Below are positions 5,354 through 8,755 of a DNA stretch of 19,497 bases, one piece after another. The first letter of the stretch is position 1; each line of letters opens with the position of its first letter. The translations under genes and the position numbers were made by a program. The notes under the pieces are model-generated. The model had not been told where the DNA came from. It was given only the letters and a program-made list of their open reading frames with translations, and did not search any database. The stretch spans positions 1 through 19,497 of the forward strand of contig JAHLVW010000109.1 of the NCBI GenBank assembly GCA_019058275.1. Direction: 5' to 3'. This DNA comes from Candidatus Heimdallarchaeota archaeon. GTDB taxonomy: Archaea > Asgardarchaeota > Heimdallarchaeia > JABLTI01.

Positions 5354-5443
5354 CTACTTTCTAGGACCATTGTTAATAACTGCATGAGCAGCTGCTAAAC
5401 GGGCTACTGGTACCCTTAATGGTGAGCAGCTTACATAATTTAA
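5354..5443 (-). pseudogene. ppdK: Orphan 3' end of pyruvate phosphate dikinase gene, copy 1 (candidate integration scar)
   Basis: Translates as LNYVSCSPLRVPVARLAAAHAVINNGPRK*, matching the conserved PPDK C-terminus GL(D/N)[19 protein letters not shown]. No start codon or upstream ppdK sequence. Confidence 0.9.
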
Positions 5444-5869
5444 ACTATAGATTATAGGAGATAATAAGAATAACATTAAATCTAAATATAATCTTAGGAA
5501 AGATGTTATGTTTCCAAAGTTGGTAATATTAGTTGAAAAAGCTATATGATTTTAAAAGAAAAAATATTCTTTCTCTATTCACTAGTTATAAAACTATTAA
5601 ATATGAAATTATTAAAAAACTATTTGCTAAGTCTATATCAAATTAAGAATTCTAGTTTTAGGTCATTCAGATTTATAATTTTACTAAATATAATGGAAAT
5701 TCAAACTAAAGGAAAAATGCCAGATTTTCACGTTTAGTTAGTAATAAAAATATCTTAGTGTAAAGGTAAGGGTTCTAATTTCTTAATTTCATATGGTTAA
5801 AAGAGTAAGGAAAAATTTATAATGACTTAGTATAACTGTTTTATTATTGAATTATGAGAAAGGAAAATA

Positions 5870-6472
5870 ATGAGGAAAGGAAATTTACTTTTTATTTTAT
5901 TACTTGTATTTACAATGTTTATTCCATATAATGTAAAACAAGTGTCAGCGATTGTTTATTACTATGGTTCTGATTGGGAAAAACAGTTACCTGGTTATCC
6001 AGATCCTGAAACCTTTGGTTCTTATCCAAATCGTACTCCATTTATATTACGTGTAAAATATGTTACAATACTTCTTTGGCCAGGAACAGGTAAAATAGAA
6101 GCACAAATGAAATTTGACTTGTACCCACGATATGGATGGGCAGGTATATTAGAACAATGGTTCTGGGCAGATAGTTATGAAAATGAACCAGTTTCCGACC
6201 ACACAGCTCAAGTTTTTGTTACATACTCACCTCCTGGACTTACAGATCAATTAATCGAAACTCTTTCTGTCTATACAGGATCAATTTGGGATCCAAATGG
6301 GTATAGTGCTGATTTTACATTTTATTTTCAATATATAGGTGGTGGTGGTCAAACATACAAATATTGTGTATTTGCTGTTTATCTTGCACGTTCTGGTAGC
6401 TCGTATATTGCACTAACATCTGAACTTGGTGCTTTTAGCACCCATCAACCACATTTATATCTGACGTTATAA
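5870..6472 (+). CDS. Secreted/surface hypothetical protein
   Basis: 200 aa with signal-peptide-like N-terminus MRKGNLLFILLLVFTMFIPYNVKQVSA and an aromatic/beta-rich mature part. Confidence 0.75.
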   Translation: MRKGNLLFILLLVFTMFIPYNVKQVSAIVYYYGSDWEKQLPGYPDPETFGSYPNRTPFILRVKYVTILLWPGTGKIEAQMKFDLYPRYGWAGILEQWFWADSYENEPVSDHTAQVFVTYSPPGLTDQLIETLSVYTGSIWDPNGYSADFTFYFQYIGGGGQTYKYCVFAVYLARSGSSYIALTSELGAFSTHQPHLYLTL

Positions 6473-6566
6473 CATCACTTAGTTTTACTTTTTTTTCTAA
6501 ATCGTAGGTCTATAGGAGGGGAAAAAAAATAAAACATAATCTTTAACATTATAGAGAGAAGAAAAG

Positions 6567-8588
6567 ATGACAAATAATAAATACCTATTACAAACAACTA
6601 ATTTACTAGCAATACTGTCAATAATTATTCTCTCAAATCTGTTCTTTCTTAATTGCTCTTACATGAATTCACAACCAATAATAGTAGAGAAAACGGAAAA
6701 CATTAAAGAAATCGCTCAATTTGATGATAACTTTGGATATTTTCGTAGTATTACAGGAGAAAAGGACACCTTAATAGTTTCAAGTTTTGACAGATTATAC
6801 ATTTTTAATGTATCAAATGTAGTTAATCCATTTATTGAAACTGAAATCCCGATTTATGATGTTAAAGATGTATTTCTGAAGGACAACATTCTATATGTTA
6901 TTCAAAACAACCAATTCCAAATTTATTCTTTTATAAACAAGAGTCTATTATTACTTGATAGTTTGACATATAATGTATCATGTTTGCAATTTGCTATTCG
7001 TGAAGATTATGCATACATAATGTTGAGTGAGGGAAATATGAGTATAATTGATATTAGTGATCCCAATATTCTAGAGGAAAGAAGCAATTTCTCTGTTGGA
7101 GAACAGATTAAGAATTTTTGTTTGTTTGATAATTTTCTGTACATATTAAACTCTGACTTTGATTTTATCGTAAAAAACATCACTGATGTGTTAAATATCA
7201 CTACAACATTAAACTATCATGTAGGAGCTGCGTATTACAGTAATTTTGAAATAATTAATGGTTACATGTATTTTATAAATGGTACAAGTAATGAATTAGT
7301 TACTTATAATTGTACATTACCAACTATTTTCGAATATGTTACTTCTTGTAGTGATTGTTTTGGTTTCTATCTAGAAAAAAAAGACAATTTAATAATAGTA
7401 TTGAGTAACAACAATTTACAAATCATTAATGTTACAGATGTAGAGACCCCCATAAAAATTTCAGATGAAGAATTACTATCTGGAGCACCAGGAATAAAAG
7501 ATGTTTACATAAGAAATGCAACACTTTTTATTACTGAGTGGTCAGAAGGATTAACAATAATCAATATTTCAGATAGTACACAACCTACAAAAATAACCAA
7601 TATTGGCATAGGAGGAGATTCTAGAGATATACTAGCTTTTAATGACTGCCTGATAGTATGTGATTATAATGGTGGTATTGAAATTTTGACCATTGAAGAG
7701 GAAAGCGAGATAGTGAAAAGAACCTCTTATAAGGAGGAAAACGAAACAAGTTATTTTTATAGTAAAATAATAAATGTTGAGGGAATTCTGTACGTAACAA
7801 CTGAAACAAAAACAATTTTACTTTTGGAAATGATGGAGAATAACTCATTAGCTAAAATAGGTGAATATCAAGATCCAGAAAGTTCACTAAGAAAAATAGT
7901 TAGTAACAATAAATTCCTATTTATAAATGCTGGAAACGGGATTGTAGTATTGGACATCAAAAATAGATTAAATCCAGAGAAGATCGATTTCTATTATGAT
8001 GGATCAGCTATTATAGACATCACTGTAAAAAAGAGCAAATTATATGTTCTATACAGTAGAGGAGTAGAGCAAGGGATTAGAATCTATGATGTAAGTGACC
8101 CATTAAACAAAGTATTAGCTGGGGATTATCAACTAGAGTATAACCTTTTCTATGGTAAGATTAAGCTACATGGAAATAATCTGTTTGTTGGACTTGAAGA
8201 GGAATTACTAATAATAGATGTTGCTTCACCAGCACAAATGAATGAAATAACAATATATGACAAAAATGATTCAATAGTAACTTGTTTAGTTTTTGCAGGG
8301 AACTACATTTGTGTAGGAATGGTAGAAGGGATTTCAATAATTGATACTAACGATAAAACAAATTTAACGGAGAAAGCATACTATTACGATGGAGGGACAG
8401 CAAATAGTATTATTGTAGAAGATAATAAATTAATCATTGCAGATGGGTTGGATGGGGTAGAAGTTTTAGAAACAGCGTTCAATTTAGATACAAATACGTT
8501 AATCTATTTCTTTATTACATTAAGTATAATAGGTGTGCTTGGTGTAGCAATAGGGATAATGGTATATCTTCAAAAGAAAAAGAAATGA
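6567..8588 (+). CDS. LVIVD-repeat (beta-propeller) membrane-anchored surface protein
   Basis: Repeats such as LYIFNVSNVVNP, MSIIDISDP, LTIINISDSTQP, IRIYDVSDP, LLIIDVASP, ADGLDGVEVL. N-terminal hydrophobic segment, C-terminal TM helix and KKKK tail. Confidence 0.85.
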   Translation: MTNNKYLLQTTNLLAILSIIILSNLFFLNCSYMNSQPIIVEKTENIKEIAQFDDNFGYFRSITGEKDTLIVSSFDRLYIFNVSNVVNPFIETEIPIYDVKDVFLKDNILYVIQNNQFQIYSFINKSLLLLDSLTYNVSCLQFAIREDYAYIMLSEGNMSIIDISDPNILEERSNFSVGEQIKNFCLFDNFLYILNSDFDFIVKNITDVLNITTTLNYHVGAAYYSNFEIINGYMYFINGTSNELVTYNCTLPTIFEYVTSCSDCFGFYLEKKDNLIIVLSNNNLQIINVTDVETPIKISDEELLSGAPGIKDVYIRNATLFITEWSEGLTIINISDSTQPTKITNIGIGGDSRDILAFNDCLIVCDYNGGIEILTIEEESEIVKRTSYKEENETSYFYSKIINVEGILYVTTETKTILLLEMMENNSLAKIGEYQDPESSLRKIVSNNKFLFINAGNGIVVLDIKNRLNPEKIDFYYDGSAIIDITVKKSKLYVLYSRGVEQGIRIYDVSDPLNKVLAGDYQLEYNLFYGKIKLHGNNLFVGLEEELLIIDVASPAQMNEITIYDKNDSIVTCLVFAGNYICVGMVEGISIIDTNDKTNLTEKAYYYDGGTANSIIVEDNKLIIADGLDGVEVLETAFNLDTNTLIYFFITLSIIGVLGVAIGIMVYLQKKKK

Positions 8589-8631
8589 AAAAAAAGAGAG
8601 GATCACTTTCCTCCTAAAGGAAGAAAGTGAT
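8588..8631 (-). terminator. Hairpin + T-run terminator downstream of ppdK fragment 2
   Basis: ATCACTTTC (8602-8610) pairs with GAAAGTGAT (8623-8631), with an inner TCC/GGA stem. A-run at 8588-8595. Probably bidirectional. Confidence 0.6.
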
Positions 8632-8638
8632 ACTATTT

Positions 8639-8755
8639 TTATTCTCTTGGTCCATTGTTCATAACTACGTGAGCCACAGCTAATCGAGCAACAGGAACAC
8701 GTAAAGGAGAGCAAGAAATATAGTCAAGACCAATGCGGTAGCAATAATTAATGGA
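8639..8755 (-). pseudogene. ppdK: Orphan 3' end of pyruvate phosphate dikinase gene, copy 2 (candidate integration scar)
   Basis: Translates as SINYCYRIGLDYISCSPLRVPVARLAVAHVVMNNGPRE*, matching the PPDK C-terminal consensus [30 protein letters not shown]. An in-frame stop lies 3 codons upstream. Confidence 0.92.

Follow-up and report, generated by a model that had tools for sequence, protein, structure and literature searches.

In Thaumarchaeota, casposons occupy the 3'-distal part of the ef-2 gene, in some cases as tandem copies, and other elements have been described to rebuild gene ends (PMC6563490). The reaction carried out by the casposase has been described as well (PMC8464041). Elements with archaeal tyrosine recombinases integrate at the 3' ends of tRNA and protein genes, where they form arrays (PMC8371274; for integrated mobile genetic elements of Thaumarchaeota, PMC6563490). 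For Asgard archaea, diverse Cas1 homologues outside CRISPR loci are reported as "possibly associated with novel MGE" (Makarova et al. 2020, CRISPR J 3:156, as cited in PMC8730458), i.e. mobile genetic elements. Here we describe a contig of 19,497 nucleotides from a Candidatus Heimdallarchaeota archaeon (GenBank assembly GCA_019058275.1, contig JAHLVW010000109.1), the whole of which is referred to as the window. It carries two orphan 3' ends of ppdK, the gene of the central metabolic enzyme PPDK, which were named fragments A and B. Both are probably relic ppdK tails, truncated at their 5' sides, that mark the junctions in a stack of mobile elements landing at the 3' region of ppdK in this genus. 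Among the papers searched, none links ppdK to an integration site in Asgard archaea. What is unusual at this locus is the length and the divergence of the swapped tail, together with the absence of a conventional integrase.

Two relic ends of ppdK

The host genome (G000) is a 4.1-Mb short-read metagenome-assembled genome (MAG) of 118 contigs with 6.8% contamination, and the window makes up the whole of its contig C106. Other G-numbers denote relatives, and negative positions count nucleotides before the ppdK stop. Up to their stops, fragment A translates as LNYVSCSPLRVPVARLAAAHAVINNGPRK and fragment B as SINYCYRIGLDYISCSPLRVPVARLAVAHVVMNNGPRE. The TIGR01828 profile was matched by A with an E of 6.5e-6 (profile positions 842-865 of 865) and by B with an E of 1.9e-8 (positions 833-863 of 865), and the last 31 residues of B were also matched to solved PPDK chains (842-872 of 873, E 2.2e-8). 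Judged by these matches, both fragments are in-frame PPDK C-termini ending at their own stops, as had been proposed in a first-pass annotation made from the letters alone; the TAG of A and the TAA of B are in place. The fragments are present-day relics, not genes. No ppdK body was found upstream of either that would make it part of a full translatable ppdK, and B has no start codon and a stop codon directly upstream, while A sits within a 40-codon ATG frame.

The positions of the first-pass annotation were confirmed, and its counts were reproduced by an independent count. Over the shared 90 nt, the copies are identical at 61 of 90 nt and at 23 of 29 residues, and 14 of these 23 residues are coded by different codons. 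The differences are distributed 6/3/20 over codon positions 1/2/3 (probability of at least 20 of the 29 at the third position, 9e-5), Nei-Gojobori distances are pS 0.82 and pN 0.15, and when the same number of substitutions was placed at random, 23 identical residues were retained in none of 100,000 simulations. An independent repeat search recovered the same pair (74 nt, 74%, spacing 3285, direct repeats on one strand), together with a second A-B pair, in register with the first, across the T-rich terminators. An identical att core, or a 5' segment shared with the host gene, had been suggested as something to look for. No such core was present at both ends, the longest exact match between A and B being 8 nt, and no such segment was found either, the longest exact matches to the host gene being 17 nt for A and 8 nt for B.

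Comparison with the working genes places both fragments among the tails of other species. Pairs of working tails from six species had mean values of pS 0.68 and pN 0.094, and pairs of orphan tails, at 0.59 and 0.087, were indistinguishable from them. This upholds the claim of the first-pass annotation, which had called for such a dN/dS estimate over collected fragments, that each copy was under selection as a functional PPDK end in a lineage or element of its own; the splicing of tails between G004 and G005, described below, speaks for that claim as well. The distance of A and of B from the host tail equals that among tails of different species. Since their synonymous divergence matches that of working tails of different species, the two copies appear to derive from different ppdK lineages, in which constraint acted at the protein level in the past, and to have been brought here with the elements. 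The conserved protein and the saturated synonymous sites would go together because each relic was, for most of its history, a selected working PPDK end. In its pN to the working tails (0.072), A is like the working tails themselves. B has begun to decay, because its non-synonymous distance to the working tails (0.157) is the highest of all copies (others 0.06-0.13). Longer fragments of the genus contain in-frame stops and frameshifts, namely C104, C110a, G002_F2 and G010_C31c.

An insertion hotspot behind the working gene

ppdK is an insertion hotspot and the orphan tails are the seams of an array, because of what is found at three loci: an array in G002, a near-empty site in G004 and the corresponding flank on contig C110 of the host genome. 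On the 120-kb contig C19 of G002, one strand carries ppdK, a 16.9-kb element, a tail (F1), a two-gene surface-protein cassette and another tail (F2). The order within the element is a convergent gene of the w825 type (w825 being an 825-aa protein encoded in the window, Table 1), followed by LAGLIDADG-HTH, HEAT, EEP-nuclease, NYN and TPR genes, a giant gene of 1212 aa, a helicase and a metallophosphoesterase, behind which F1 begins about 330 nt ahead of the stop. In G004 the near-empty site consists of ppdK, 880 nt, and the genes h157 and h149. In the host genome the h157-h149 flank is found on C110, preceded by two orphan tails with an RHH-PIN pair between them.

The host genome has a single full ppdK, on contig C74 and 1.3 kb from the contig end, and six orphan tails: two in the window, two on C110, and two adjacent matches on C104 that represent one frameshifted fragment. 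Among the other 11 genomes of the family, a ppdK match was found in eight, and six of these eight have extra tails. The order metallophosphoesterase, tail, cassette, tail recurs in the independent assemblies G002:C19, G010:C31 (with three tails) and G006:C118, and C104 shows the gene order of the window, from the metallophosphoesterase through a single fragment to a w825-type gene, with the cassette missing. In all copies that were examined, the metallophosphoesterase is followed by a ppdK fragment, with a g2_528-like gene standing between the two in G006; the junction of metallophosphoesterase and fragment is also present in G002:C19, G000:C104 and G006:C88. The fragments in this position share a 5' edge at about -330 in G002, C104, C110a, G006 and G010, and no common motif was seen at the 5' edges of the short fragments. 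At the other end of the element, the working ppdK of G002, G003 and G005 is immediately followed by a w825 homologue, and so is the C104 fragment. Read in the orientation of ppdK, i.e. from right to left, the window consists of a first element (X) with TPR, giant, helicase and metallophosphoesterase genes, a 100-nt spacer, fragment B, the convergent LVIVD and 200-aa genes of a cassette, fragment A and a second element (Y). Going leftwards, the latter shows convergent w825, a LAGLIDADG-HTH gene and the beginning of another, different giant gene, which is 48% identical to that of X. Orphan ppdK tails were also observed in two further families of the class (G042:C188, G048:C304, G035:C1 and G041:C5); in G048, one of them follows the full gene at a distance of 1.3 kb and on its strand.

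The working gene itself exchanges its end. The PPDK proteins of G004 and G005 are 93-96% identical until about 130 codons before the end, and at the DNA level (G004:C235 3473-6172 versus G005:C34 5233-7929) 97% identity is maintained to about -393, followed by sharp divergence, so that the last 110 aa are only 68% identical. In G005 an element is situated behind ppdK, and its relic adjoining h157 retains "RLASAH", as in the working tail of G004. The near-identical body and the 68%-identical tail show that element-borne tails are spliced onto the working gene, the element thereby restoring the 3' end of its target.

The terminators and flanks assign the two fragments to different sources. Four terminator-like hairpin sites were found, as compared to 0.9 expected in shuffles. 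Over a stretch of about 55 nt, the terminator of B shares about 95% identity with its counterparts in G004 and G001, as compared to 72-79% in the coding part; for G004 alone the values are 95% and 72% (p 0.001). The best DNA match of B within the order is the tail on G001:C6 (84% over 177 nt), followed by the working ppdK of G004 (80%). A has the element-type terminator common to tails adjoining w825-type genes, namely the working ppdK of G000, G002 and G005, A itself and C104. To C104, A is 94% identical from -33 to +190 and 74% identical from -87 to -34 (Fisher p 7e-5), the 94%-identical flank being the left end of a second element copy. Breakpoints are located near -34 and directly after the T-run. 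Downstream, the flanks of A and B are unrelated to each other, and an Rfam scan of positions 5000-9000 gave no family above threshold. At its start, the spacer aligns over ~35 nt with the corresponding junction of G002, made up of the metallophosphoesterase stop and the "LHQMSLGFS" of the -330 edge, and it is tentatively taken as a remnant of the same displaced tail as B. The 5' edges of A and B, 8-9 codons apart, had at first been attributed to different crossover points or to trimming. They look more like the product of trimming than like primary crossover points, given the weak alignment of the spacer to the -330 edge and the cut of A at the start of the cassette.

We consider it probable that these observations are explained by elements which exchange the tail of ppdK upon arrival. 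A full element comprises a ppdK tail with terminator, w825, the LAGLIDADG-HTH gene, variable genes, TPR, the giant Cas1-fold gene, the helicase, the metallophosphoesterase and a ppdK fragment starting at about -330. The incoming element supplies its own replacement tail of about 110-130 codons, pushing the old tail downstream, behind the metallophosphoesterase. B, with its terminator of the G004/G001 type, would have been displaced by element X, which covers 8857-15543 and continues to the right, and A, with its element-type terminator and w825, would be the tail of element Y, which extends leftwards from 5302; the cassette would cut A at about -90. The 3.2-kb cassette may have entered by a single crossover at about -34, in which a circular cassette with a G004-type tail, truncated at its 5' side, recombined with the element-type tail already in place. 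Tail-to-tail recombination could also cut out and re-insert segments of the array, so that relic tails would move between species. On C110, tails a and b have a 74-nt identical stretch (-103 to -29) around the RHH-PIN pair (12140-13664), and the terminator of tail b, beside h157, is the native one. This is the outcome expected of a Campbell-type insertion, and the cassette appears to have arrived recently, in the same pattern as in the window. Homologous tail-to-tail recombination by the host is the likely route for the small cassettes, and may suffice.

The candidate integrase and described systems

For the large elements, attention is drawn to the giant protein. Its C-terminal 430 residues were modelled by AF2 (pLDDT 72) with a Cas1-like fold. 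All top Foldseek matches of this part are Cas1, the best being the casposase 6OPM (E 5e-5). With VIA-align, the top 15 Cas1 entries reached Z 14-16.6 over 255-274 residues, and all of the top 36 entries are Cas1 or casposase, the first unrelated chain following at Z 5.6. Residues E132, H214, D230 and D233 are invariant among 11 homologues, and an intact orthologue of 1212 aa is present in G002. Searches with the giant protein sequence (Pfam, NCBIfam, PADLOC and PDB sequences) gave no match, and a scan of the genome contigs with an alignment of the Cas1 domain returned nothing beyond two already known relatives. No tyrosine or serine recombinase was identified by Pfam, NCBIfam and PADLOC in the larger open reading frames of the window and the complete G002 element, where w825 and three others remained unmatched. 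On the strength of the modelled fold, the giant gene is the only integrase-like gene found, and its product is a likely candidate for the integrase of the large elements, at roughly even chances.

Casposons are resembled in that a Cas1-family gene is the only integrase-like one, in the targeting of the 3' end of a housekeeping gene, and in the repeated use of the site, which leads to tandem arrays. The Cas1-family integrase of casposons has its counterpart here at the level of the predicted fold only. Unlike in casposons, neither terminal inverted repeats nor PolB was found, no target duplication of 13-15 bp was seen in flanks that would mask one, the repeats are diverged gene tails of 90-330 nt, and the Cas1 domain ends a 1212-aa fusion protein whose gene shares an operon with those of the helicase and the metallophosphoesterase. 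The missing inverted repeats and PolB speak against a casposon-like reaction. With the gene-end elements of tyrosine recombinases, the locus has in common that a replacement 3' end is brought along, that the old end becomes the direct repeat on the far side, and that serial insertion leaves a row of partial ends; it differs in that searches of the complete G002 element gave neither a tyrosine nor a serine recombinase, in that the replaced piece amounts to about 110-130 codons with 68% protein identity, and in that A and B have no identical core. The reported Asgard Cas1 homologues (PMC8730458) are similar in being diverged, located outside CRISPR loci and suspected to be genes of mobile elements.

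A number of observations weigh against a stack of tail-exchanging elements. At the presumed ends of the G002 element, terminal inverted repeats scored 20 as compared to a shuffle mean of 19.6, although short ones could escape, and none were seen within the window. Nor was a 13-15-bp target duplication seen, though homologous gene-tail flanks would mask one; the working tail of G002 and F1 have a 16-nt identical run at about -60 to -43. A PolB domain was absent from all genes of the window and of the G002 element. Element X is degraded here, with both the giant protein and the helicase split (on C93, an 814-aa helicase frame spans both pieces). The window contains no full ppdK, its placement behind the gene of the host genome being deduced from relatives, and with 6.8% contamination some contigs may stem from a second strain. 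The boundary of the swap in G005 (about -393) differs from the 5' edge of the displaced fragment (about -330). Within the order, the search for source alleles of A and B turned up nothing near-identical (best for B, 84%), and in a degenerate-pattern scan of metagenome contigs none of the matches listed was closer than about 80%. The local alignment by which the spacer is read as a decayed tail has a z of 2.6, which was reached by 8 of 500 shuffles, and was obtained against a single reference, G002_F1, and not against other tails. Lastly, when the halves of A and B were reassorted at every breakpoint, the best identities rose from 148 to 151 of 180, giving marginal support for a crossover.

Integron arrays offer another comparison, as small integrase-less cassettes (surface proteins, a toxin-antitoxin pair) are parted by a repeated site near the only integrase-like gene. 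Here, however, the separators are once-coding gene tails and not attC hairpins, no IntI-like match turned up in general family scans, and the mobility of the cassettes is something we infer. Pursued further, the comparison would make the tail and its terminator a maintained attC-like site, with integrase-less cassettes captured in trans by the neighbouring Cas1-fold protein and with A and B as working cis sites. We regard this as unlikely, and judge in the same way a Cas1-driven counterpart of integrons, in which the insertion or exchange of cassettes at the ppdK tail also swaps the last 110-130 codons of an essential enzyme. Cassettes free of recombinases between tails in the window, C110 and G002 would fit a maintained site, as would the breakpoints near -34 and right after the T-run and the terminators being better kept than the coding tails (B versus G004, as given above). 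The differences between the tails, however, concentrate at third codon positions, which is the signature of constraint on a protein and not on a DNA site. In addition, the core common to A and B is at most 8 nt, the 5' edges of the short fragments have no motif in common, B shows an excess of non-synonymous changes, and the Cas1-fold gene adjoining B is broken.

A chimeric contig, on which the tails are brought together although they are neighbours in no real genome, is a decidedly improbable source of the pattern. The short-read MAG with its 118 contigs and its contamination gives some ground for it, as does the fact that the tail-bearing contigs are all short and break inside repeated element genes; contig ends of this kind showed no overlap by which they could be joined, except for C110 with C97. 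The same gene order is nevertheless found in independently assembled contigs (the 120-kb G002:C19, G010:C31 and G006:C118), and A and B, at 68% identity, are too divergent for a mis-join. Very little speaks for a present function of the fragments, either as small peptides or as antisense or decoy RNAs acting on ppdK expression: the ATG frame around A and the stops and terminators retained in both copies would agree with it, while the stop directly upstream of B and its missing start, the in-frame stops and frameshifts in longer fragments of the genus, and the empty Rfam scan argue against it. Least probable of all, and already contradicted, is that the host ppdK end was duplicated within the genome and then decayed neutrally. 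The two copies are direct repeats on one strand, 3.3 kb apart, but combine a pS of 0.82 with a pN of 0.15 in a manner that no neutral simulation reproduced, possess different terminators and flanks with separate relatives, and are each as distant from the host tail as are the tails of other species. The rejection of recent duplication and neutral decay in the first-pass annotation was thereby upheld, the synonymous sites being saturated, the protein kept and the downstream flanks unrelated.

If, as we think probable, the fragments mark junctions between stacked elements, they are reliable markers of the hotspot, separating elements X and Y of the window from the cargo cassette that lies between them, with DNA of different species stacked upon each other. 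Asgard elements would exchange about 110-130 codons of a central metabolic enzyme for their own diverged version, and since they replace the end of PPDK, this end would in these archaea partly be mobile DNA under selection. Should the Cas1-fold protein be the responsible enzyme, Cas1-mediated integration extends beyond casposons and CRISPR; should it not be, the arrays show the reach of plain gene-tail recombination in building cassette arrays. As for annotation, orphan ppdK ends in MAGs of the Heimdall group would be element boundaries and not pseudogenes of a second ppdK.

Features and neighboring genes of the window

The coordinates of the features discussed are collected in Table 1.

Table 1. 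Features of the window, in order of position.
Feature	Position	Strand	Remark
w825, 825-aa protein	2825-5302	plus	convergent with the ppdK tail; marker of the left end of element Y; homologues at ppdK tails
37-nt block in the last 44 codons of w825	5181-5217	unassigned	near-invariant in four species; candidate cis site of the element left end
Terminator-like hairpin and T-rich run behind A (element-type)	5319-5339	minus	also behind the C104 fragment; related ones behind the working ppdK of G002 and G005
Fragment A, last 29-30 codons of ppdK and stop TAG	5354-5446	minus	coding 5443 to 5357, stop 5354-5356
Cassette without integrase, 3.2 kb, between the tails	5447-8638	plus	absent from C104
Secreted 200-aa protein, in cassette	5870-6472	plus	
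673-aa LVIVD beta-propeller protein with C-terminal membrane anchor, in cassette	6567-8588	plus	
Terminator hairpin with 13-bp stem, behind B	8602-8631	minus	type found behind ppdK of G004 and the tail of G001
Fragment B, last 38 codons of ppdK and stop TAA	8639-8755	minus	coding 8755 to 8642, stop 8639-8641
Spacer	8756-8856	minus	probably the decayed, shortened 5' two-thirds of the displaced tail of B, canonical edge about -330 (tentative)
Metallophosphoesterase, last gene of element X	8857-9477	minus	Pfam PF00149
DEAD/DEAH helicase with MrfA Zn-binding (DUF1998) domain, split into 157 + 669 aa	9474-11973	minus	Pfam
Giant protein of element X with Cas1-fold C-terminus, split into 196 + 1021 aa	11909-15543	minus	structure comparison

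For w825, no match was found in Pfam, NCBIfam, PADLOC or the PDB sequences, and Atlas gave weak Mrr-like leads only. The 37-nt block within its gene has no mismatch in C104 and G005:C34, one in G002:C19 and two in G003:C16, at a protein identity for w825 of only 28-36%. The block includes TTTATATA, which is similar to an archaeal TATA element. On G000:C74, similarity to the element left end stops within this block, after which a Cas6 gene follows (PF10040, 42553-43365); the gene is thus situated directly behind the working ppdK, after a remnant of about 135 nt of the element-type left end.

Genes of the two elements have relatives elsewhere in the genome. The LAGLIDADG_3 and HTH protein (window 739-2421) has about 20 paralogues across it, and the modules of giant gene, helicase and metallophosphoesterase have about ten, which indicates a large element family with other targets. 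In one of these paralogous modules (G000:C19, ~32815-33514), a tRNA-like 3' end lies less than 600 nt away, downstream of the metallophosphoesterase, and also matches C69:54117-54290; a tRNA gene seems to be the site of this family member. Such a location at a tRNA-like 3' end fits an element family that would target the 3' ends of genes. To the right of the giant gene, the window holds two TPR genes (15663-16658 and 18842-19210), which are 52-57% identical across their shared part. The interval between them encodes an orphan protein of 379 aa, one of 110 aa and, at 18462-18644, a UPF0175 (antitoxin-like) protein, and it may be a further module boundary.

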